Assembly: GCA_963728825.1 (NCBI GenBank)
Contig: CAVSLA010000001.1
Span: forward strand, 423,886-487,885
Direction of reading: 5' to 3'
DNA length: 64,000 nt
Origin: an uncultured Acidobacteriota bacterium
GTDB taxonomy: Bacteria > Acidobacteriota > Vicinamibacteria > Vicinamibacterales > CAVVIG01
Part shown: positions 2,604 to 52,747 of the stretch, in pieces
Numbering within the stretch: the first letter of the stretch is position 1
Layout: every line of letters begins with the position of its first letter
The notes under the pieces: model-generated
The model's input: the letters and a program-made list of their open reading frames with translations, nothing else
Databases searched by the model: none
Told to the model about the DNA's origin: nothing
Made by a program: the position numbers and the translations under genes

Positions 2604-3773
2604 CTAGGTGGCCAGGATCTCTTCGTAGTACGCCTCGTAAATCGGGACGATCTTCGAATCGCAGTAGCGCTCGTGCGCCACGCGTCGCGCGGCGGCCGAC
2701 GCACGGCGATAGAGATCGTCGTCGGTGAGTAGACGGTACACGGACTCGGACATGCCGTTCAAATCGTCGAGCGGGTGGAGAAAGCCGGTGACGCCATGCT
2801 CGATGACCTCGGGCAGTCCGCCAACGCGGGACGCGACGACTGGCACCTCGCAGGCCATCGCTTCGAGCGCCGCCAGACCGAAGCTCTCCTGCGTCGAGGG
2901 CAGGAGAAATACGTCGGAGGCCGACAGAAGCTGTACGACCTGATCCTGTTCTCCGAGGAACTCGACGTCCGAAGCCACGCCCAGCGTCCGGGCCAGCCGC
3001 GACGCGTCGGCCACGTCCGGACCGTCGCCCACCATCAACAGCCGACACGCGATCCGGCGGCGGACCACGGCAAAGACTTCGACGGCCGCGGTGACCCGTT
3101 TGACGGGCCGGAAATTCGAGACGTGAATCAACAACTTCTCGCCATGCGGCGCCAGCGTTTTCCGGAGAGCGCTCACTTCGCGCCGCCGATGCACGCTGCA
3201 GTCGAGAAAGTTCGGAATCACGCGAACGTCGTGCTTGATGCCCAGCTCGCGACAAGTATCGGCTTTCAAACTCTCCGACACAGCGGTCACGCCGTCGGAC
3301 TGCTCGATGCAGAACGCCACGGTCTCGGAATACGAGCGATCGCTGCCGAGCAGCGTGATATCTGTACCGTGAAGCGTGGTGATCACTTTAGGGACCTTGT
3401 TTACTCCGGGGACTCCTCCCCCCCGGCCCCACTCCCCTTGAACTCTGCTGCTGAGAATCTGCCGCGCCAGATAGCCCGCGGTGGCATGAGGGATGGCGTA
3501 GTGCGCGTGGACGATCTCCAGGTCTTCATCGCGCGAGACCTGAACGATCTTGTTCGCCAGCGATAGGATGTACTGGGGCTCGCGGAACAACGGGTAGGCC
3601 GGCGTCTCGACCCGGTGGAAGAACAGGCCGGGTTGGTACTCACCGAACCGCGCCGGCATGTCACTGCTCAGAATGTGGACGCGGTGGCCGCGCGTCGCGA
3701 GGACCTTCCCGAGCTCGGTGGCGATGATGCCGCTGCCGCCAATTGATGCGTAGCAAACGATTCCGATATTCAT
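2604..3773 (-). CDS. bshA: N-acetyl-alpha-D-glucosaminyl L-malate synthase (bacillithiol glycosyltransferase BshA, GT4)
   Basis: [86 protein letters not shown] matches Bacillus BshA end to end (from memory). It sits immediately downstream of bshB1, as in Bacillus. I prefer the ATG at 3773 (GGAG 7 nt upstream) over the track's GTG at 3779. Confidence 0.85.
3399..3426. repeat. Degenerate copy (24 of 28 nt) of the GTTCACTCCGGGGGCCCCTACCCCCCGG hairpin element, embedded in frame in the bshA coding sequence
   Basis: gtttactccggggactcctcccccccgg compared with gttcactccgggggcccctaccccccgg at 3774 and 7799. On the coding strand it encodes part of [11 protein letters not shown], inside an apparent extra loop of BshA. 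Confidence 0.6.
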
Positions 3774-3810
3774 GTTCACTCCGGGGGCCCCTACCCCCCG
3801 GTGATCAAAG
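3774..3810. repeat. GC-rich hairpin (REP-like) element, family A copy 1
   Basis: gttcactccgggggcccctaccccccggtgatcaaagg. The stem is CCGGGGG/CCCCCGG around a CCCCTAC loop. The element abuts the bshA start, and its minus-strand end CCGGAGTGAAC supplies the GGAG upstream of the ATG. Confidence 0.8.
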
Positions 3811-3830
3811 GCTCTCCCCAGCGTACAGCT

Positions 3831-3869
3831 TCCTTGGTGTCCTTTGAGTCCTTTGTGTCCTTTGTGTCC
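3831..3869. repeat. 9-bp word repeat (TCCTTTGTG-type), about 4 units
   Basis: tccttggtg tcctttgag tcctttgtg tcctttgtg tcc, directly after the bshB1 stop. The same word array recurs at 48207-48244. Confidence 0.8.
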
Positions 3870-3873
3870 ATCT

Positions 3874-4584
3874 CTAAGTCACACCGCCTCGCAGCAGACT
3901 GCCCCTGACGACCGGCTCGCGAACGACGAACCCTTCCGCCCACCGCACGCCGGCGCGCGCGCCGAACTGTGCGTCGCGGCTTTCGACGAGCTGACGAAAG
4001 AGCGGCGTGTTCAGGCGCGTCGCCACCGCCCCGTCGACCGACGGCGCCTGAAACTGACTCGCGTGGCAATCGAGCGCGGCGCGTTTCTGATCGTAGTGGT
4101 CGGTGACGTCGACGACAAACGAGGGCTCGGCGGCATCATTGATGAAGTAGTAGCAGATCCATTCCGCCTTCCACGCCTCGCCCTCGGAGGCGTAGCGCCG
4201 CAGGCCCGCGTTGAACGCGGCCTCGGTGAGCACGTGGCTCGCAGCGCCGTGGTCCGGATGTCGATCGGACCAGTGCGGAATCGCAATGGTCCGCGGCCGA
4301 TGCTTCCGGATGAACGCAGCGGCCTGCGCGACATGTGACGGATCGCTCCCGATTCGGCGGTCGGGCCAGCGCAGGTTGTGACGCCACAGAGCGCCGAGCA
4401 CCAGCCGCCCCGCCTCCGCTTCGGCGAGTCGCTCCTCGATGGTGCCATTGCTGCCCATCTCGCCGGCGGTGAGATCGCACAAGCCGACCCGCAGCCCTGC
4501 GGCAGCATGGCGCGCAACCGTTCCGCCGAGACCGATCTCGATGTCGTCGGGGTGGGGACCGAAGACCAGGACGTCTACTGGCAT
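3874..4584 (-). CDS. bshB1: N-acetyl-alpha-D-glucosaminyl L-malate deacetylase (bacillithiol biosynthesis, LmbE family)
   Basis: MPVDVLVFGPHPDDIEIGLGGTVARH..GLCDLTAGEMGSNGTIEERL..SDRHPDHGAASHVLTEAAFNAGLRRY..CHASQF aligns along its length with Bacillus BshB1 (from memory). It lies upstream of bshA. Confidence 0.8.
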   Translation of the reverse strand: MPVDVLVFGPHPDDIEIGLGGTVARHAAAGLRVGLCDLTAGEMGSNGTIEERLAEAEAGRLVLGALWRHNLRWPDRRIGSDPSHVAQAAAFIRKHRPRTIAIPHWSDRHPDHGAASHVLTEAAFNAGLRRYASEGEAWKAEWICYYFINDAAEPSFVVDVTDHYDQKRAALDCHASQFQAPSVDGAVATRLNTPLFRQLVESRDAQFGARAGVRWAEGFVVREPVVRGSLLRGGVT

Positions 4585-4608
4585 GCTCGTCTAACTTTCT
4601 TCCACTGG

Positions 4609-4630
4609 CGCTGGGGCCCCACCCCCAGCG
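4609..4630. repeat. GC hairpin with the GGGG-CCCCAC-CCCC core (CGCTGGGG / CCCCAGCG stem)
   Basis: cgctggggccccacccccagcg in the bshB1 upstream spacer. Its flank aactttcttcc resembles the reverse complement of the 82-bp unit at 52502-52747. A second hairpin, CGACCCT..AGGGTCG, follows about 50 nt later. Confidence 0.65.
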
Positions 4631-4762
4631 CGTACTTACGCTGATGCCTCGCCTCGTCCCTCGACTTTGCTCGGGACGACCCTGAGCTCGTCGAAGGGTC
4701 GGATCGATCAGTCCTCGGCTCGGCATGGCCGCAGGCGCTCTGTCCTTCTCGCTCCATGTCGA

Positions 4763-5980
4763 TTATCTGTTGAACCCGAACGCTTCGTCCGCCGCATCGG
4801 CTTCGCCGAGATGATGCCGAAGCAGAACGCGGCTCGCGAGGTACGCGCCAGTCACCCCGTGACTGGCGTCGCCGAACGCGAAGAGATGGTGCGGGAAGTT
4901 GCGATGAGCCCCGAGATACGGAACGCCTTCGGCGGTGAGCGCGTACGGTGCGTCCCATCCGAACGCCGGCATGATGCCGGAAATTTCCGGATACATGGTC
5001 GACAGCTCGTACATCAGTTGCCCGGTACGCTGCACGATGGTCTTCTCCCGGAGTCGCGGCAGCACGATCGCCGCGTCCGCCCCGGCAATCAGCAGCCGAT
5101 CGTCGTCCACCCAGCGCACGATGTGTGCCGGCTCCGCAACATCGCGGATGACGAGCTCCCGTTTGCCGAGCTGGTGACGGATTCTGGCGGGCAGCGGCTC
5201 GGTCAGGACGAGATACGAGCTCTTGAGCCAGAAGTGCCGGATGAGCGACTTGAACAACTGGGTCGGCATTCCGGTCGCCACGATGATCCGCCTGGTGCGG
5301 ATGTTGCCGTCATCGAGCACGACGTCGGCGGTGCGCCGGCCGAATTTCGTCCGGATGACAGGCGTCCGCTCGAAGAGCTGCGCGCCGCGTTCGACAGCGG
5401 CGGCCGCAAGGCCGAGCGTCGCTCGATAGGGATCGAGGACTGCCCCATCCCGTGTTCGAACTCCGCCGGCGGCATGGATCGCCGCTTCCGACTGAATCGC
5501 TTTCGGGCTGAGGGACGGCGCATCAAGACCTGCGTCCTTACGGGCTTTCTGTTCCCGCGCGACGAGCGCAAGCTGCGCCGGCGTCATCGCGGCGAGCAGT
5601 GTCGACCGGGGCTCCAGATAACACTTGACGTCGAGACGCCGCAGCAGGGTCGCGAAGTCGAGTGCGGAGCGACGCCACGCCTGCCAGCCATGGCGTGCGG
5701 CCCGCAGGCCAAGCAGCTTCTGGGCGGAGAGGAAGCTGGCGCCGGGATCGTCGGATATCCAGCCGGTCGAACATGCGCTGGCACCTCGACCGATCTGCGC
5801 CGCCTCGACCAGCGCGACTTTGATGCCGGCCGCCGCGAAGGAGTACGCCGTGGCGCACCCCGTCAGGCCGCCGCCGATGATGACGACGTCGATCTCGTGG
5901 CGGCCTCGAAGGCGTGGATACGAAGGAACGCGCGACCTGGGAAAACGGTCGGTCCATGGGGAACGGCCGTATTTCGTCAT
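4763..5980 (-). CDS. FAD-dependent oxidoreductase (DAO / glycine-D-amino-acid oxidase family)
   Basis: N-terminal Rossmann motif DVVIIGGGLTGCATAYSFAAAGIKVALVE; 405 aa, a typical DAO-family length. Confidence 0.8.
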   Translation of the reverse strand: MTKYGRSPWTDRFPRSRVPSYPRLRGRHEIDVVIIGGGLTGCATAYSFAAAGIKVALVEAAQIGRGASACSTGWISDDPGASFLSAQKLLGLRAARHGWQAWRRSALDFATLLRRLDVKCYLEPRSTLLAAMTPAQLALVAREQKARKDAGLDAPSLSPKAIQSEAAIHAAGGVRTRDGAVLDPYRATLGLAAAAVERGAQLFERTPVIRTKFGRRTADVVLDDGNIRTRRIIVATGMPTQLFKSLIRHFWLKSSYLVLTEPLPARIRHQLGKRELVIRDVAEPAHIVRWVDDDRLLIAGADAAIVLPRLREKTIVQRTGQLMYELSTMYPEISGIMPAFGWDAPYALTAEGVPYLGAHRNFPHHLFAFGDASHGVTGAYLASRVLLRHHLGEADAADEAFGFNR

Positions 5981-5992
5981 GAGTAGGGAATA

Positions 5993-7096
5993 TTAGTCGA
6001 CATTTGCACGTTCCCGGGCGAGCAGGGCCTTCTTGCGCGGTGTCCCCCAGCGGTAGCCGCCTGTGCTGCCGCTCGCCGGCAGGACGCGGTGACAGGGAAT
6101 CGCGAGCGCGACCGGGTTGGCTGCGCAGGTGCGCGCCACTGCTCGAACGGCTCTCGGTCGGCCGATGGCCGCCGCCACTTCGGCATAGCTGCGCGTGGCA
6201 CCGTACGGGATTGCCGCGAGTGCCTCCCACACCTGCCACTGAAAAGCGGTCGCTCGGATGTCCAGGGGCAGATCGAGGCGTGGCAGGCGACCGGCCAGGT
6301 GATCGAGGATCCGTCGCGTCCACTCGACGAGCTGGCCGCGATCCCGGCTGATGATGGCGTTCGGATATTCGCGGTCGAGCGCGGCGCGAAGGTCTGCGTC
6401 CGACTCCCCCATCGATACCGCACAGATCCCGCGCGGCGTCGCTGCAACGAGCAGCCGCCCGACCGGAGAACTGACCGTGGTGTAGTCGATGCGCGTCCCG
6501 GCCGCACCACTTCGGTACGTCGACGGCGTCATGCCAAGCTTCGGCACGCCGCGTTCGTAGAAGCGGCTGCTCGAGCCGTAGCCGGCCTCGAGGGTCGCCT
6601 CGGTGACCGACCGCTGCCCCTTCAACTCGCGCTTGACCCGCCGCAGACGGCAGGCGTCTGCGTACTGGCGCGGCGTGATGCCGACGATCCGCTTGAAATT
6701 GCGCTGCAGGTGATACGGACTGCCGCCGAGACGACGGGCCAGCGATGCCAGTGTCGGGTGGCCCTCGACATCCGCGAGATAGGCGCAGGCGCGGCGGATC
6801 CGCTCGAGCCAGGGATCGGACACCGCCGCGTCGCGCGGCCGGCAGCGGCGGCACGGCCGGAAACCGGCGCGCTCCGCTTCGGCGAATGTGTCGAAAAACG
6901 TGACGCGATCCCGCCGCGGCCGGCGGCTGGCGCATCCGGGACGGCAATAGATACCCGTGGAGCGAACGGCGTAGACGAAGTCGCTCGCCACGGCACGGTC
7001 GCGTGAGACGAGGGCGTCCCACCGTGCGGACTCGGTTGTGTGCGGGGCCGTCTGAATCATGTCCGTACTATGCGCCGGCTCGCCATCCGGCGCCAT
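5993..7096 (-). CDS. ada: Bifunctional Ada-type regulator and methylated-DNA-protein-cysteine methyltransferase
   Basis: Ada zinc domain (YCRPGCASRRPRRDRVTFF), an AraC-type HTH in the middle, and a C-terminal MGMT active site IPCHRVL. An alternative start is the ATG at 7060 (MIQTAPH). Confidence 0.85.
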   Translation of the reverse strand: MAPDGEPAHSTDMIQTAPHTTESARWDALVSRDRAVASDFVYAVRSTGIYCRPGCASRRPRRDRVTFFDTFAEAERAGFRPCRRCRPRDAAVSDPWLERIRRACAYLADVEGHPTLASLARRLGGSPYHLQRNFKRIVGITPRQYADACRLRRVKRELKGQRSVTEATLEAGYGSSSRFYERGVPKLGMTPSTYRSGAAGTRIDYTTVSSPVGRLLVAATPRGICAVSMGESDADLRAALDREYPNAIISRDRGQLVEWTRRILDHLAGRLPRLDLPLDIRATAFQWQVWEALAAIPYGATRSYAEVAAAIGRPRAVRAVARTCAANPVALAIPCHRVLPASGSTGGYRWGTPRKKALLARERANVD

Positions 7097-7177
7097 CCGG
7101 GGCTTGCGGACAAATTGTACGGCTTTACGGGCGGACCTGAGTGGCGGCTGGAGTCGGCAGCAAATTCTCAGATGTGG

Positions 7178-7198
7178 GCCGGGCCTCTTAGGCCCGGC
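7178..7198. repeat. Family C hairpin element (GCCGGGCCT ctt AGGCCCGGC)
   Basis: Perfect 9-bp stem in the spacer between ada and the next gene. Related copies are at 19444, 30471, 35804 and 60911. Confidence 0.75.
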
Positions 7199-7246
7199 AA
7201 AACCTTGATGTAGACGCCGGGACGGTCGCCCGCGGTATCGCTCCGA

Positions 7247-7780
7247 TCACCGCCGCAGCCACTGATCGAGCCGTCCCACCAGCTCGTTCCACCTGGTTTC
7301 GTCAGCCGACACCTGGTTGAGAGCATCGCTTTCCCGGGTCCGCAGCTGCTGCAGCTGGGCGGATACCGATTCGAATTGGGTGCGCAGGTCGGTGCGATGA
7401 TGCTCGAGCGCCTGTCGGGCGTCAATGGGCGGCAGACCCCCTGGCAGCGTCAACTCTTTGGGGCTCATCTGCTCCGCTTCGGCCATCGCGCGCGAGAGGC
7501 TCTGGAATCTCGTGGTCGTCGCATCGAGCTCGCGGCGCACGGTGTCGAGCCGTCCGTTGGCTTCGGCCAACCGGCGCTGCTGGACCTCGAGCAGGCCCGT
7601 GATCGCCTGTGTCTGGATCTGTGTGTCCGCATAACGCTCGATGACATTCCGGAGCGCGCGCATCTCGTTGACGAGCTCCCTCGAAACCGCCGGCTCGACG
7701 TCCCGGCTCTGCGCCGACAGAACGACTGCCGTGAGGGCAACGACAACGCCTGCGATAACGAACGCACCTGTCTTCTTCAT
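7247..7780 (-). CDS. Secreted coiled-coil protein, function unknown
   Basis: MKKTGAFVIAGVVVALTAVVLSAQS signal peptide, then a heptad-like, Q/E/R/L-rich sequence. GGAGGAG lies upstream of the ATG at 7780; the track start at 7804 runs into the repeat. Confidence 0.5.
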   Translation of the reverse strand: MKKTGAFVIAGVVVALTAVVLSAQSRDVEPAVSRELVNEMRALRNVIERYADTQIQTQAITGLLEVQQRRLAEANGRLDTVRRELDATTTRFQSLSRAMAEAEQMSPKELTLPGGLPPIDARQALEHHRTDLRTQFESVSAQLQQLRTRESDALNQVSADETRWNELVGRLDQWLRR

Positions 7781-7798
7781 GCGAGCTCCTCCTCGATT

Positions 7799-7870
7799 GT
7801 TCACTCCGGGGGCCCCTACCCCCCGGTTTGATGCTGTTCACTCCGGGGGCCCCTACCCCGGCTTGATGCT
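7799..7870. repeat. Family A hairpin element, tandem pair (37 bp plus 35 bp)
   Basis: gttcactccgggggcccctaccccccggtttgatgct is followed directly by gttcactccgggggcccctaccccggcttgatgct. It lies between the ADOP stop and the coiled-coil gene start. Confidence 0.85.
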
Positions 7871-7877
7871 GCAGCTG

Positions 7878-10571
7878 CTACGCGTAGTCCTGCCGCAATG
7901 CCTCCGTTGGTTGAATGCGGGTCGCCCGCCAGGCGGGCAGTCCAACGGCGACGACCGCAACCGCGATGAGCAGCCCGATCGCGGTGACAACCGAGGCGAT
8001 GTCGGTCGGCATGACATCGAACAGCTCGGCCCGCACCAGCCGGGCGACGATCGAATGCCCGGCCGCGCCTGCGATCACGCCGACCGCGAGGACGAGAGAC
8101 GTTTCCCTCGCGAGCATCCAGCCAATACGGACACGGCTTGCACCCAGGGCCATGCGCACGCCAATCTCGCTGGTGCGGCGGGCCACCGCAGCGTTCAGCA
8201 TCCCGTAAAAGCCGACGGCAACGAGCAGCAGCGCCAGCGCACTGAATGTGGTACCCAGTGTGGCCAGCAGGCGCTCCCGGCGAAGACCGTTTTCCAGTTG
8301 CTCCTGAACGGTCCTCATCCGAAGCACGCCGACGTTCGGATGAAGCTGCTCGACGGTTCGGCGCGCGGCCGCAGCCAGCAGTTCGGGATCTCCCGCCGTT
8401 CTCAGAACGAATGTCGTGCCGCGAACATCGCCTTGCGAACGAGGCGCGTAGATCATGTTGTCGGTCGCCCGCTTGAGTCCGCCGTCACGAACGTCCCTGA
8501 CGACGCCGATGATGTGGAAAGGCTGATTCAGCTCAGTGGGCGCGAACGAAACGGTTCGACCGACGACGTCGGCTGCGTTGAAGAAGTGGCGGGCAAAAGA
8601 CTCGTTGACGATCGCCACCCGCTGCGATCCCGTCTGGTCGGTTTCGTCGAAGTCACGCCCCGCCAGCAGGGTCATGCCGACCGTGCGGACGAAGCCCGGC
8701 CCGCCGTACGCGACGCCCGCCGAATCGCGCCGCGGATCGGGCGTGCGGTCGGAGGCCGGCGGCGCGATGTTGAAATAGGTGCCGACCCCGACACCGAGCG
8801 AGCCGTACGAATCGGTGACCGCCTGGACGCCCGGCAGCGCGGACAGCGCTTCGCGCCCTTGTGCGAGGAAGGAGTGAAAACGGGTCTCATCCAGATCCCT
8901 TGTGCCGATGTCCATGGTGACCGTCAGCAGACGGTCCGATCCGAACCCGACGTCGATGCGGCGGAAATTGGTGAGGGTCTGCAGGAAGAGCGCGGCGCTG
9001 CCGACGATGGTAATGGTCAGCGCGACCTGGGCCGCCATCAGGCTTCTGGTCAAGCGCGGCGACCCGTGAGCCGAGATGTTCCGGAGCGCATCCTGCGGGT
9101 TGGTCGCTGACGCACGAAGAACCGGCGCGAACCCCGACAGGAGCGCGGCGCCAATCGCCACCAGCGCCGTGAAGCCGAGCATCCACGCGTCAGGACGGAG
9201 ATCGACGCCGTCGAGGGCGCCGTCGCCAAGCGCGAGGTAATAGCCGGCGGGCGCAAGCCACTGCGCGAGGAGCAGGGCGAGTACCCCGCCCGCAAGAGCG
9301 ATGAGCAGGATCTCGGTGAACAACTGACGCATGAGCCGGAAGCGGCCGGCGCCAAGTGCGAACCGGAGCCCCAGCTCCTTCTGGCGGTTCAGCGCACGCG
9401 CGAGAAACAGCCCGGCAAGATTGGAGCAGGCGATCAGAAGAACCAGAGCCGTGGCGATCATCAATACACGCAGCGTCGGCTGAAGCGATCGGCGCACGCC
9501 GGATGTCGCCCCGGTCGACGCCACCCGCACGTCGACCCTGATGTTCTCGGCATTGAGACCCAGTTTCTGGCGCATCCCGGCCGGGACCGCAGCGATCGCT
9601 GCCTCCGATGCTGCTCGGAATACCGGGGTCAGCCGCTCCGCGGCCCGTTCGGTTGAGACGCCGGGCTGGAGGCGTCCGATGAAGATCAACCACCCGCGAT
9701 TGCCCGCGGTCAGGATGCCCGGCGGATAAAACAGCTCTGCGTCGGTGAGCGGCAGGAAGACGTCGTAGCTCTCGCCGAACGCGAGACCACGAAAGTCCCG
9801 CGGCAACACGCCGGCGATCAAGACGTCGCGGCTGCCGAGCACAAATGACTCGCCAATGACCTCGGGGCGTCCTGCGAAGGCCCGGCGCCAGTAAGCGTGG
9901 CTGAGCACTGCGACGGACGGTGAGCCAGGCCGCTCGTCTGACGCCGCCAGCACCCGTCCGGCGGCGGCCGAGATGCCGAGCACATCGAACAGGTTGCCCG
10001 AGGCCAGCATGGCCGTGATTACTTCGCGGCGCCCGTCGATGACCGCGACGACCCCGCCCGGCGTCGGCGCAACGGCGGCGATACCGGTCAGGCCTTCGTG
10101 TCGGTCGGTCAGCATCTGGAATGCCGGGTACGACTGCAGGCACGTCCGCGAGCCGCCGGTGGCGCCCGGGCCCGACCCGCAATCGATCTGCACGAGCTCG
10201 TAAGGATTCGGCACGGGCAGGGTCTTGACGAGCACCTCGCGGACGACGCTGAACAACGCGGTGTTGACGCCGATGCCCAGTGCCAGCGTCACGACGGCCA
10301 GCGCGGCGAAGGCGGGGGTCCGGCGATACGTCCGTAGCGCGAAGCGGACGTCACCGCGGAAATCGTCCAGCCAGACCGAGCGCGTGGCCGCCCGGACGTC
10401 TTCCCTGATCTGCTGCCGGCCGCCAAATTCGAGTCGAGTGAGCCGTGCGGCTTCGGCGGGAGAGCGTCCCGACGCGATGTGCTGCGCAATCTGCTCGTCG
10501 ATGTGAAACTGCAGTTCCCTGTCGATCTGCTGGTCACGACCGCGCGTGAACAACCGACGCAGGACGCTCAT
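7878..10571 (-). CDS. ADOP-family duplicated FtsX/MacB-like permease (no ATPase partner), copy 1
   Basis: MSVLRRLF..ELQFHIDEQIAQHIASG..RSPAEAARLTRLEFGG leader typical of the PadR-linked class. Two FtsX-type 4-TM modules are separated by large periplasmic domains. The ATG at 10571 overlaps the PadR stop (ATGA); the track's 10715 start is an off-target extension. Confidence 0.85.
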   Translation of the reverse strand: MSVLRRLFTRGRDQQIDRELQFHIDEQIAQHIASGRSPAEAARLTRLEFGGRQQIREDVRAATRSVWLDDFRGDVRFALRTYRRTPAFAALAVVTLALGIGVNTALFSVVREVLVKTLPVPNPYELVQIDCGSGPGATGGSRTCLQSYPAFQMLTDRHEGLTGIAAVAPTPGGVVAVIDGRREVITAMLASGNLFDVLGISAAAGRVLAASDERPGSPSVAVLSHAYWRRAFAGRPEVIGESFVLGSRDVLIAGVLPRDFRGLAFGESYDVFLPLTDAELFYPPGILTAGNRGWLIFIGRLQPGVSTERAAERLTPVFRAASEAAIAAVPAGMRQKLGLNAENIRVDVRVASTGATSGVRRSLQPTLRVLMIATALVLLIACSNLAGLFLARALNRQKELGLRFALGAGRFRLMRQLFTEILLIALAGGVLALLLAQWLAPAGYYLALGDGALDGVDLRPDAWMLGFTALVAIGAALLSGFAPVLRASATNPQDALRNISAHGSPRLTRSLMAAQVALTITIVGSAALFLQTLTNFRRIDVGFGSDRLLTVTMDIGTRDLDETRFHSFLAQGREALSALPGVQAVTDSYGSLGVGVGTYFNIAPPASDRTPDPRRDSAGVAYGGPGFVRTVGMTLLAGRDFDETDQTGSQRVAIVNESFARHFFNAADVVGRTVSFAPTELNQPFHIIGVVRDVRDGGLKRATDNMIYAPRSQGDVRGTTFVLRTAGDPELLAAAARRTVEQLHPNVGVLRMRTVQEQLENGLRRERLLATLGTTFSALALLLVAVGFYGMLNAAVARRTSEIGVRMALGASRVRIGWMLARETSLVLAVGVIAGAAGHSIVARLVRAELFDVMPTDIASVVTAIGLLIAVAVVAVGLPAWRATRIQPTEALRQDYA

Positions 10572-47778: not shown

Positions 47779-48197
47779 GCGACGAACGCCAGCACCATCT
47801 CGAGTCGATCGATCAGCCGTCGGTGCATCACGAAGAAACCGACATCAACATCCGCGCTGTCTTCGGCTTCGGCGGCGGTCTGCTGGTCACGACCATCGTC
47901 GTGATGCTGGCGATGTGGGGGCTGTTTCGCTACCTCGACGGCCGGGCGGAGCGGCTCGGTGGTTCGCTCCGGCCGCTCGCGACGAATGAAGTGCGGCTGC
48001 CGCCTGAACCGCGACTGCAGATCACGCCGCGCGCCGACGCCGCCGAGTTCCGTGCGCAGGAAGACGCGCTGCTGAACGGTTACTCATGGGTCAATCGGGA
48101 AACAGGCACGGTCAGGATCCCGATCGCTGAGGCGATGAAGATGACGTTACAGCGAGGGTTGCCCGCGCGCGAGCAGCCGGCGGGTCAGCAGAAATGA
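47775..48197 (+). CDS. Small single-TM protein encoded between act and cox genes (possible ActG-like accessory subunit)
   Basis: MSDERQHH..INIRAVFGFGGGLLVTTIVVMLAMWGLF (TM) ..RLPPEPRLQ..LLNGYSWVNRETGTVRIPIAEAM. ATGA overlaps on both sides. Confidence 0.55.
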   Translation: MSDERQHHLESIDQPSVHHEETDINIRAVFGFGGGLLVTTIVVMLAMWGLFRYLDGRAERLGGSLRPLATNEVRLPPEPRLQITPRADAAEFRAQEDALLNGYSWVNRETGTVRIPIAEAMKMTLQRGLPAREQPAGQQK

Positions 48198-49135
48198 CGC
48201 GACGTTTTGTGTCCTTGGTGTCCTTGGTGTCCTTTGTGCTCCTGACATCTCCGCTCGCCGCCCAGATGAGCGGTGCCCCCAGCGCCGGATACCGCCTCGA
48301 GCCTGGAGTGGCGGCATCGGTCGTCCCGCAACCGCTGCGCGAGATCGGATTCGATCAGCGGCTCGACGAACGCGTGCCGCTGGACGTCGAGTTCAGAGAC
48401 GAGCTCGGGCAAACCGTACGGCTCGGTCAGTACTTCGGGCAGAAACCGGTCGTGCTCGCCTTCGTGTACTACGACTGTCCGATGCTCTGCACGATGGTGC
48501 TCAGCTCGATTACCAGCACGCTGGGCGTCCTGTCGCTCGATGCCGGCACGGACTTCGAGCTCGTGATGGTGAGCTTCGACCCGCGGGAAACACCGGAGCT
48601 GGCGGCGCGGAAAAAAGCGGAATATCTCGGGCGCTACGATCGACCTGGTGCCGCGGGCGGGTGGCATTTCCTCACCGGCAACCAGGCCTCGATCAGCCGG
48701 CTCACCGCAGCCGCCGGGTTCCGCTACACCTGGGACGAGGACACGAAACAGTTCGCGCATCCAGCCGGCATCGTGGTCCTCACGCCTGACGGCCGACTGG
48801 CCCGCTATCTGTTCGGCCTCGAGTTCGGTCCGCGAGACCTGCGCCTGGCACTGATCGAAGCCTCCGGTGGCCGCATCGGCACGGCGGTCGACACGGCGCT
48901 GCTCTATTGCTACCACTACGATCCGATGACCGGCCGCTACGGCCTGGTCGTGATGCGCGTGCTGCGCATCGCCGGCGCCGCCACGGTGCTGGCCCTCGGC
49001 ACATTCATTTTCGTCATGGTCAGGCGAGAACGCACCCGGCACCTACGCACCCTGCACCCGGCACCCGGCACCCCGCACCCGGCACCCGGCACCCGGCACC
49101 AGCCCCCGGCCCCCGCTCCCGACGTGAGGCAGTGA
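48194..49135 (+). CDS. sco1: SCO1/SenC copper chaperone for CuA assembly, with a C-terminal TM helix and a repeat-derived tail
   Basis: PVVLAFVYYDCPMLCTMV (CxxxC) and a downstream FAHPAG His. N-terminal VSLVSLVSFVLL and C-terminal HPAPGTPHPAPGTRH are both encoded by word repeats. Confidence 0.85.
   Translation: MTRRFVSLVSLVSFVLLTSPLAAQMSGAPSAGYRLEPGVAASVVPQPLREIGFDQRLDERVPLDVEFRDELGQTVRLGQYFGQKPVVLAFVYYDCPMLCTMVLSSITSTLGVLSLDAGTDFELVMVSFDPRETPELAARKKAEYLGRYDRPGAAGGWHFLTGNQASISRLTAAAGFRYTWDEDTKQFAHPAGIVVLTPDGRLARYLFGLEFGPRDLRLALIEASGGRIGTAVDTALLYCYHYDPMTGRYGLVVMRVLRIAGAATVLALGTFIFVMVRRERTRHLRTLHPAPGTPHPAPGTRHQPPAPAPDVRQ
48207..48244. repeat. 9-bp word repeat (GTCCTTGGT-type), second locus
   Basis: ttgtgtccttggtgtccttggtgtcctttgtgctcc inside the first codons of sco1. 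Same words as 3831-3869. Confidence 0.8.
49031..49100. repeat. 7-bp word repeat (GCACCCG-type), reverse complement of the 10978-11029 array
   Basis: gcacccggcacctacgcaccctgcacccggcacccggcaccccgcacccggcacccggcacccggcacc, lying in the last codons of sco1. Confidence 0.85.
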
Positions 49136-51783: not shown

Positions 51784-52504
51784 CACCGCCGCGGGCGCGA
51801 CCCGGCCCGGACACCACCGCCTCGACGACAGCGGCCCTGGGCACCGAAGCCTTGGCGGAGGTGGCCATCGGGCGCTGGCGCATCACTTCGACAACCTCGC
51901 CCAGCAGCAGGAAGCAGCCACGCTGGGCATGTGGGTCTTCCTGGTCACCGAGGTACTGTTCTTCGGCGGGCTGTTCGCCGCCTACTCGCTCTACCGCGCC
52001 TGGTATCCGGACGCCTTTGCCGCGGCGAGTCATACGCTGGACATCACGCTCGGCACGGTGAACACCGCCGTCCTGATCACCAGCAGCTTGACGATGGCGC
52101 TGGCGGTCCACGCGGCGCAGCTCGGCGAGCGGCATCGGCTGATGCTGTTTCTGATCGCGACGATGATTCTCGGCGGCGTGTTCCTGGGCATCAAAGGCGT
52201 CGAATACGCCCACAAGTTCACCGAGCATCACGTGCCCGGTCCCTCGTTTCACTTCGAGGAAGAGCACCTGTCAGCCCAGGCGCAGCTGTTTTTCTCGCTC
52301 TATTTCGTGATGACCGGCCTCCACGCGCTGCACATGGTGATCGGGCTCGGGATCATGGCGTGGATGCTGTGGTGGGCGTGGAACGGCACGATCGGACGTG
52401 ACTACTACAGTCCGATCGAAGTCAGCGGCCTCTACTGGCACTTCGTCGACATCGTCTGGATCTTCCTGTTCCCGCTCTTATATCTCATCGGAAGACACGG
52501 ATGA
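51773..52504 (+). CDS. ctaE: Cytochrome c oxidase subunit III
   Basis: [67 protein letters not shown]. Confidence 0.85.
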
Positions 52505-52747
52505 CGTCCTGTTCTTGATACGCGCGAGCACAACGGTGCGAGCGCGTCGGCGAGTGGGGGTGGGGCCCCACGAGAAGTAAAGTTGACGTCCTGTTCTTGT
52601 TACGCACGAGCACTGCGGTGCGAGCGCGTCGGCGAGTGGGAGTGGGGCCCCACGAGAAGTAAAGTTGACGTCCTGTTCTTGTTACGCACGAGCACTGCGG
52701 TGCGAGCGCGTCGGCGAGTGGGGGTGGGGCCCCACGAGAAGTAAAGA
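52502..52747. repeat. Tandem repeat, 3 x 82 bp, equal to a triplicated ctaE-ctaF intergenic spacer
   Basis: Units start at 52502, 52584 and 52666, each with TGACGTCCTGTTCTTG, and differ at a few positions. The first TGA is the ctaE stop, and the third unit ends at the ctaF ATG (52748). Each unit carries GTGGGG-GTGGGG-CCCCAC. Confidence 0.9.

Follow-up and report, generated by a model that had tools for sequence, protein, structure and literature searches.

The bshA gene in a 64,000-nucleotide stretch of contig CAVSLA010000001.1, from an uncultured Acidobacteriota bacterium (hereafter the window, meaning the whole stretch that was analyzed), raises the question of how an ordinary enzyme gene comes to hold, within its reading frame, a segment that closely resembles a short hairpin repeat standing between genes of the same window. 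An earlier note on this DNA had proposed that a repetitive element was "exonised" in frame inside bshA, a term that is loose for a bacterium, although the in-frame insertion itself stands. We consider it very probable that the segment at 3399-3426 is a copy of the hairpin repeat that is older and has decayed a little, that it is an in-frame gain specific to this lineage, and that it is tolerated as a neutral passenger. The repeat is a member of a previously undescribed family of short hairpins that are dispersed, and often arranged in tandem, in Vicinamibacterales and other Acidobacteriota. Throughout, P0001 denotes the BshA protein of the window, other handles of the form P#### denote homologous proteins, and handles of the form L### denote DNA loci.

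The segment reads GTTTACTCCGGGGACTCCTCCCCCCCGG on the plus strand and CCGGGGGGGAGGAGTCCCCGGAGTAAAC on the minus strand. It differs from the intergenic element GTTCACTCCGGGGGCCCCTACCCCCCGG at 4 of 28 positions, which confirms by direct count the 24 of 28 identities given in the earlier note. Three intergenic copies had been listed, at 3774, 7799 and 7836; the first two (3774-3801 and 7799-7826) match GTTCACTCCGGGGGCCCCTACCCCCCGG exactly, but the third (7836-7861) is a variant that is 2 nt shorter. Profile searching with nhmmer finds four copies of the repeat in the window. When the real window is sorted by mismatches to the element, there are two sites with 0 mismatches and two sites with 4, and all other sites have at least 10, such that no site falls between 5 and 9. 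Dinucleotide-preserving shuffling of the window, repeated 300 times, gave no site with as few as 5 mismatches; the closest approach, with 6 mismatches, was seen once. Given the absence of such sites from the shuffles and the gap up to 10 mismatches in the real window, the match of 3399-3426 to the repeat is not a by-product of the 66% G+C background, a possibility that the earlier note had itself raised against its proposal.

These measurements bear on the view that the resemblance is coincidental and that the loop encoded here was lengthened by slippage in, or duplication of, G-rich Gly/Pro codons. That view draws on the low-complexity G/C character of the sequence and on the predicted hairpin of the internal copy, for which z is just -1.5. 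However, neither the shuffles at 5 or fewer mismatches nor the real window at 5 to 9 mismatches offers any comparable site, the match takes in the non-repetitive tail GGAGTAAAC, and, as described below, no fewer than 11 other genes hold the family in frame, as does bshA of a second lineage, at the same codon. We regard a coincidental resemblance as extremely improbable.

The open reading frame (ORF) that contains the segment, 2604-3773 on the minus strand, scores 505.8 bits against the TIGR03999 thiol_BshA profile (cutoff 273.7), with residues 1-387 aligned to profile positions 1-374 of 375 in a single stretch. To judge from its sequence, this ORF is a bona fide BshA (N-acetyl-alpha-D-glucosaminyl L-malate synthase) and is otherwise intact. 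The segment encodes R117-N125 (RGGGVPGVN) and the last base of the G116 codon, and the ORF and its full-length profile score bear out the earlier claim that the element lies within the bshA frame and that the frame is kept. That BshA is an essential enzyme, as had also been written, is overstated, given that Bacillus bshA null mutants are viable.

In an alignment of the window BshA with the B. anthracis enzyme (2JJM/3MBO; E = 7e-103 for 2JJM), the sole large gap comprises 17 residues and falls exactly at the loop. This agrees with the proposed insertion of ~17 residues relative to Bacillus, but only ~11-12 of those residues are insertion, and the remainder of the 17 belong to a longer loop that is common to the whole acidobacterial clade. 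Relative to close acidobacterial orthologs, the excess is 11-12 residues, or a net 33-36 nt over the AAG-xxx-C-V loop, and at the DNA level the added material lies at or beside the Cys codon that precedes GTN-CCN-AAR. We compared the window protein with its 120 best BshA homologs, which span 73-100% identity, and with 80 bshA loci fetched from metagenomes. Among the 120 homologs, 117 have a loop of just 5 residues, in the form QIL-AA-Gxxx-C-VP[KR]V, and all 80 metagenomic loci likewise have 5 residues there. The closest homolog, P0002 (90.8% identity outside the loop), has AAGQRAC at this site with no insert, and 116 others among the 120 also lack it. None of the 80 metagenomic loci carries the insert, and no repeat copies are present there in 254 kb. 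The ortholog alignment that the earlier note had called for thus finds the insert to be lineage-specific, and it places the gain of the bshA copy after the split of this lineage from its nearest sampled relatives.

The second proposed check, structural modeling, gives the insert a location. In the AlphaFold2 (AF2) model, which has a mean predicted local distance difference test (pLDDT) score of 86, the insert lies in a loop between helix 94-109 and strand 129-134, and pLDDT is below 50 at residues 113-124; the inserted residues are thus predicted to be disordered. In a Rossmann-type domain, the helix-to-strand loops lie opposite the face that bears the C-terminal strand ends and the active site. 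Fold topology would therefore put the insert on the side away from the catalytic cleft. Because the modeled loop is disordered and Gly/Pro-rich residues appear to be tolerated in it, we take the bshA insert most likely to be a neutral passenger in a surface loop.

The element spans 28 nt and reads CCGGGGGG-TA-GGGGCCCCCGGAGTGAAC on the coding (minus) strand, and the family consensus is CCGGGGGG-NN-GGGGCCCCCGGAGTGAAC. Its parts are a 7-bp G:C stem (CCGGGGG/CCCCCGG), a short loop that varies, and the conserved 3' tail GGAGTGAAC; five of its six frames are free of stop codons. The minimum free energy of the folded canonical copy is -18.6 kcal/mol as RNA (z = -2.3), with z = -2.8 as DNA, and the hairpin CCGGGG(G)/(C)CCCCGG is predicted in every copy. 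A scan of GTDB genomes, one genome per species, for the exact 18-mer GGGGCCCCCGGAGTGAAC returned 34 loci (L003-L036), ~29 of them with the full 28-nt consensus. The hosts of the family are Vicinamibacterales metagenome-assembled genomes (MAGs), namely SMAG_U6528, which alone contributes at least 16 loci, and five more, together with other Acidobacteriota or Terriglobia MAGs; the few remaining 18-mer loci, in unrelated phyla, look like chance matches. Clustered copies are all head-to-tail, with periods of 15, 28, 30, 32, 37 and 63 nt and units of 30-37 nt. In the 63-nt units, the main hairpin alternates with a second hairpin, GCGGGGCGTAGGGGTCCCCGCGGAGCGCGT, in which the outer stem pair is changed on both sides; composite units of this kind are seen at L027 5072-5222 and at L019 7438-7498. 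Stem sub-families are also found, with CCGGGG…CCCCGG replaced by GCGGGG…CCCCGC at 3 loci. The 18-mer by which copies were gathered fixes the 3' arm, and only this 3-locus sub-family bears on covariation.

Two familiar kinds of element were considered and rejected. Miniature inverted-repeat transposable elements measure 70-300 bp, are bounded by terminal inverted repeats and come with a target-site duplication; the present repeat is too short to be one and has no consistent flanking duplication. For a CRISPR array, unique spacers, similar to one another in length, would separate the repeats; none were seen, and the tandem copies here are contiguous or joined by repeated linkers. Rfam 15 covariance models searched against window positions 3300-8000 (E <= 1) gave no relevant match, and our literature searches returned no description of this repeat in Acidobacteria or Vicinamibacteria.

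Further in-frame copies, which the earlier note had suggested looking for, are present in many unrelated genes of related genomes. Translations of the ORFs that cover copies were searched with Pfam for domains on both sides of the element or spanning it. Among the ~29 loci with family copies, at least 11 sites besides bshA are firmly intragenic (Table 1). When the two bshA alleles are counted with them, 10 of 13 firmly intragenic copies are in sense orientation, and the sense frame R-G-x-G-A-P-G-V-N is used at 9 of the 13 (binomial P = 1.7e-4 against 1 in 5 stop-free frames). As a separate observation on the FtsX arrays (L017 917-1063, L008 410-526 (SMAG_U6528)), the left flank is common to both contigs and the linker sequence differs.

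Table 1. Coordinates of features in the window and placement of intragenic copies of the hairpin repeat at other loci.
Locus	Feature or host gene	Coordinates or placement	Strand or orientation	Basis or remarks
Window	bshA coding sequence, 389 aa, ATG 3773-3771, stop included	2604..3773	(-)	TIGR03999; PDB 2JJM
Window	expanded BshA loop, residues S108-V127	3393..3452	(-)	DNA alignment of filled and empty alleles; AF2 pLDDT
Window	diverged hairpin-repeat copy within bshA	3399..3426	(-)	24/28 match and nhmmer family profile; orthologs without it
Window	canonical copy abutting bshA ATG	3774..3801	(-)	exact match to GTTCACTCCGGGGGCCCCTACCCCCCGG
Window	rest of ~100-nt bshB-bshA spacer, four 9-nt CACAAAGGA-like repeats	3802..3873	(-)	absent from relatives
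Window	bshB1 (bacillithiol deacetylase), upstream operon gene	3874..4584	(-)	TIGR04001, 261.9 bits, cutoff 182.5
Window	canonical intergenic copy	7799..7826	(-)	exact match; co-oriented with flanking minus-strand genes
Window	second intergenic copy	7836..7861	(-)	37 nt from 7799..7826 copy (tandem); G run 2 nt shorter
L019	ABC exporter	between ABC_membrane and ABC_tran		63-nt dimer, in frame, …ERGDGAPAERDRGEGAPGVNYVLRDVSF…
L021, L034	NYN/OST-HTH protein (two genomes)	splits OST-HTH near profile position 36/37	sense	main frame
L025	S9 peptidase	inside ORF	sense	main frame
L013	squalene/phytoene synthase (SQS_PSY)	inside single domain hit 20-284	sense	main frame
L017/L008	FtsX-type permease	five tandem 30-nt units		GAGAPGVNK ×5
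L031	TamB-like protein	inside ORF	sense	main frame
L036	DUF4097 protein	inside ORF	sense	main frame
L020	PadR regulator	splits wing	sense	other open frame, PGDRGPRSE
L003	GT2	inside ORF	antisense	
L010	PAS histidine kinase	inside ORF	antisense	
L005	S15 peptidase	inside ORF	antisense	

One reading of this pattern is that the family is specialized for coding sequence: it is free of stops in five frames out of six, is co-oriented with transcription, is kept preferentially in one sense frame (R-G-x-G-A-P-G-V-N), can expand in frame by units of 30 nt (10 codons) or 63 nt (21 codons), and can donate a ribosome-binding site, and possibly a GTG start, to the 5' ends of genes. We hold this reading tentatively and think it somewhat unlikely. 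If it is true, the family would be a widely acting source of variation in the loops and linkers of Acidobacteriota proteins, and the repeated insertion of this and other palindromes into the BshA loop would reflect a mechanistic target preference, such as one for hairpin-prone single-stranded DNA at the site, and not a selective filter alone.

The BshA loop itself holds inserts in more than one lineage. The homolog P0007 (L001) has GAC CGG GAC GGA GGG GCC CCC GGA GCG AGA (DRDGGAPGAR) at the same codon as the window insert, and this insert holds a 13-nt exact family core, GGGGCCCCCGGAG. In the sequence outside the loop, P0007 shares 90.5% identity with its nearest relative, P0020, in which the insert is lacking, and only 84.8% with the window protein. 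The P0007 lineage apparently gained the same repeat family at the same codon independently. P0046 (L119 1896-1996) has a 28-residue insert in the same loop that is encoded by a ~75-nt palindrome unrelated to the hairpin family; the palindrome reads CGTTCGTCGTTCGTCGTTCG … CGAACGTCGAACGACGAACG, and its predicted fold (-30.6 kcal/mol, z = -3.7) was not equaled in stability by any of 200 shuffles. A third insert-like loop, GPAGGSAGADT, is seen at the protein level in P0116, and further lineages among the homologs also carry inserts here. Evidently, the BshA loop is a permissive insertion site. The loop insert of L118 (P0038) was tried as a palindrome and not counted, as it folds no better than its shuffles (z = +0.4). 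A metagenome pattern scan for filled bshA alleles (CCCCGGAG-N8-GTNCCNAARGTN…) returned none; even L001, whose samples lie outside the collection, was not returned.

The two filled alleles also allow an origin without transposition to be weighed, in which the internal copy arose from the start-codon copy by ectopic recombination, gene conversion or template switching, and the L001 insert arose by recombination or common descent. Two same-orientation copies do lie 375 nt apart in one gene, both filled alleles share the codon and frame of the element, and neither a target-site duplication nor a transposase was seen, all of which speak for such an origin. However, an upstream copy is lacking in L001, since bshB and bshA overlap there. 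In a neighbor-joining tree, the smallest clade that includes P0001 and P0007 has 32 leaves, 30 of which are without this insert, and common descent therefore needs many precise losses; on this tree, two independent gains or a recombinational transfer is more parsimonious than one gain followed by such losses. Furthermore, the P0001 and P0007 inserts differ in length and at many positions, and the internal copy has diverged further than the upstream copy and is therefore not a recent conversion product. An origin of this kind is, in our judgment, unlikely.

Recurrence at one loop could likewise be taken as a sign of adaptation, with the loop giving BshA a new interaction or mode of regulation, or with an mRNA hairpin tuning translation or mRNA stability. 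In line with this, the same loop has been struck in two or three lineages, the RGxGAPGVN frame is over-represented among intragenic copies to the extent given above, and the L021 and L034 orthologs, in two genomes, both retain their copy. Yet the bshA insert is missing in nearly all relatives and is predicted to be disordered, the host genes of the family are functionally unrelated, and the internal bshA copy is decaying, with 4 changes relative to the consensus, one of which shortens the stem. The loop also takes unrelated inserts, and since these are tolerated there, permissiveness fits better than function. We therefore judge an adaptive insertion to be quite unlikely and retain the neutral passenger as the preferred account.

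The second copy associated with bshA lies at the junction with bshB. The bshB-bshA gene order is the same in relatives, where the two genes overlap by 4 nt (ATGA/GTGA) in L001, L002 and L037 and lie 1-2 nt apart in L038-L041. In the window, the gap between them is ~100 nt (3774-3873). Comparison with these relatives shows that the spacer, as aligned, has separated bshB and bshA genes that formerly overlapped. Given a spacer of this length, we infer that the ancestral translational coupling of bshB and bshA has been lost. The 9-nt units of the spacer read CACAAAGGA, CTCAAAGGA or CACCAAGGA on the minus strand, and their run reaches 2 nt into the bshB stop region (3802-3875). The element contains GGAG (3782-3779) 5 nt upstream of the bshA ATG. 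This is likely to be the Shine-Dalgarno sequence of bshA, and because it is the only Shine-Dalgarno-like sequence there, initiation of bshA translation probably depends on the element. The GGAG is partly base-paired in the predicted hairpin fold.

Copies just upstream of or at start codons are found at window 3774 and in L016, L018, L022, L026 and L027. The element may often donate a ribosome-binding site or a start codon, the window case being the only one compared with relatives. Copies that stand 0-1 nt before an ATG, or that offer a GTG of their own (GGAGTGAAC) where the downstream ORF apparently starts, are seen at window 3774-3782, L018 5514-5535, L022 709-729 and L026 6746-6778. As a separate observation, the junction spacers of other relatives contain unrelated 7-10-nt tandem repeats: CTAATCC in L044, AATTAGG/AATTAAG in L046, GGCTAGA in L116, and a repeat of its own in L042. 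Short tandem repeats seem to colonize the bshB-bshA intercistronic site repeatedly.

In the explanation that we favor, the repeat would have landed in frame in bshA, its five stop-free frames out of six favoring persistence, at the loop that leads from N-domain helix 94-109 into strand 129-134, where BshA would tolerate ~11 added Gly/Pro-rich, disordered residues. The insert would then be selfish or slippage-prone DNA that has been filtered by selection, not an adaptation. The canonical copy before the bshA ATG, inside the ~100-nt block that parts bshB and bshA, would be younger. Our favored guess for dispersal is a trans-acting HUH/Y1-type transposase that acts on the single-stranded DNA hairpin, as is the case for repetitive extragenic palindromic (REP) elements, and tandem arrays would grow by slippage.

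Several observations weigh against this explanation. The left boundary of the insertion is ambiguous, with the adjacent upstream residues also diverged (SSRVQGEW vs AAGQRA), and one additional codon at the bshA insertion is left unexplained. Hairpin stability is merely modestly above that of shuffles in this G/C-rich context, because the sequence is almost entirely G/C. Neutrality, together with a position away from the active site, is something that we infer, and the count for the source organism, whose genome is not in the GTDB set scanned, covers four copies in 64 kb. Across the copies, neither a target-site duplication nor a target motif recurs consistently. A crude screen of six-frame ORFs from the window and L003-L036 with the HUH/Y1 transposase regular expression HUH…Y(x)3-4[NQ/EQ] gave 0 matches. 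With regard to targets, sequence resembling GTGAAC stands before the insertion both at the bshA start and at L026, and in a looser form before the one in the bshA loop; GTGAAC is duplicated only at L026 and perhaps at the bshA start. A common target site or duplication was dropped as a candidate, as most copies have no consistent flank of this kind.

The phenomenon of palindromic repeats within protein genes is already known, and it is the repeat family that is new; intragenic REPs (Di Nocera et al. 2013) and Rickettsia palindromic elements (RPE; Ogata et al. 2000) have both been described. Intragenic REPs with GTAG or CGTC tags occur in Opitutus, Thauera, Xanthomonas and others, and a minority of classical REPs lie inside known genes as short in-frame peptides, which are thought to be neutral and located in linkers or loops (Di Nocera et al. 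2013, PMC3733652). The family described here resembles REPs in being a dispersed, sometimes grouped, G/C-rich stem-loop of the 20-40 nt class and in having sub-families with alternative complementary stem residues (PMC3733652). Unlike GTAG/CGTC REPs, it has no unpaired tag; its 3' end is GGAGTGAAC and its 5' end is variable, and GTAG occurs in the loop of a minority of copies only, with GCAG, GAAG or ACAG in most. Unlike REPINs, its copies are head-to-tail and not inverted pairs. Its intragenic share appears much higher than that of classical REPs (~1/3-1/2 of sampled loci), its host phylum is Acidobacteriota, and, unlike REPs mobilized by REP-associated tyrosine transposases (RAYT), it was accompanied by no RAYT in the crude motif screen of the window and 34 loci. 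The REP-type label of the earlier note thus holds as far as a short dispersed hairpin repeat is concerned and does not extend to a GTAG/CGTC tag or a RAYT transposase. The repeat is a short G/C-rich palindrome, as REPs are, and it is not predominantly extragenic.

RPE are in-frame palindromic repeats in functional genes (Ogata et al. 2000, as cited in PMC3733652 and PMC1779305). As far as these accounts describe them, RPE share with the present family an in-frame location in many unrelated, apparently functional genes, at surface-compatible sites, and an additional intergenic occurrence. In the same accounts, RPE-1 is ~100-150 bp and encodes ~30-50 residues, whereas the present element, at 28-37 nt, encodes ~10. 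The two are unrelated in sequence, and the host in this case lives free in soil and has a large genome, in contrast to the reduced, intracellular hosts of RPE. Class 3 TnpA(Y1) genes of Acidobacteria and Planctomycetes are flanked by atypical hairpin repeats that have no GT[AG]G tag and reach high copy number, with ~600 in Solibacter usitatus (Quentin et al. 2018, PMC6006769). Like these, the present repeat is an untagged acidobacterial hairpin, and the same mobilization route is a candidate for it; unlike these, it does not consistently have their 5' CnGA foot. Cyanobacterial small dispersed repeats (SDRs) of ~21-27 nt, which Elhai and colleagues are said to have described in 2008, reportedly also insert into coding sequence. 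Mycobacterial interspersed repetitive units (MIRUs), attributed to work by Supply and colleagues in 1997, are said to lie between operon genes in one orientation and to contribute to translational coupling. In its position between bshB and bshA, the junction copy is reminiscent of MIRUs. SDRs and MIRUs differ from the present family in sequence and phylum, and MIRUs are 40-100 bp and not typically intragenic.

These results add an undescribed repeat family for Acidobacteriota, a dominant but poorly studied soil phylum. The family sits in frame in ordinary genes, can expand as tandem 10-residue units and can rebuild a translation start. Such inserts would account for odd low-complexity loops in acidobacterial proteins, can mislead gene callers at 5' ends, and flag permissive loop sites in enzymes such as BshA. 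The system should be useful for asking how palindromic repeats spread and why they are tolerated in coding DNA. Knowledge of bacillithiol synthesis is unchanged by the finding.

Other repeats were noted elsewhere in the window. Positions 52502-52747 hold three tandem 82-nt units (94% identical) between a cytochrome-oxidase-subunit-III-like ORF (stop 52502-52504) and a small membrane ORF (ATG 52749); each unit has the palindrome GTGGGGCCCCAC and ends in GAGAAGTAAAG, and there is no Rfam match to these units. Near the 3' end of the ORF at 48194-49135, a 7/14-nt tandem repeat (CGGCACC / CGCACCC) with at least four units occupies 49046-49100. Finally, a 9-nt repeat, GTGTCCTTG, lies at 48194-48247 in an apparent signal peptide (MTRRFVSLVSLVSFVLL…), and it resembles the plus strand of the 9-mers at 3825-3875, possibly by coincidence.

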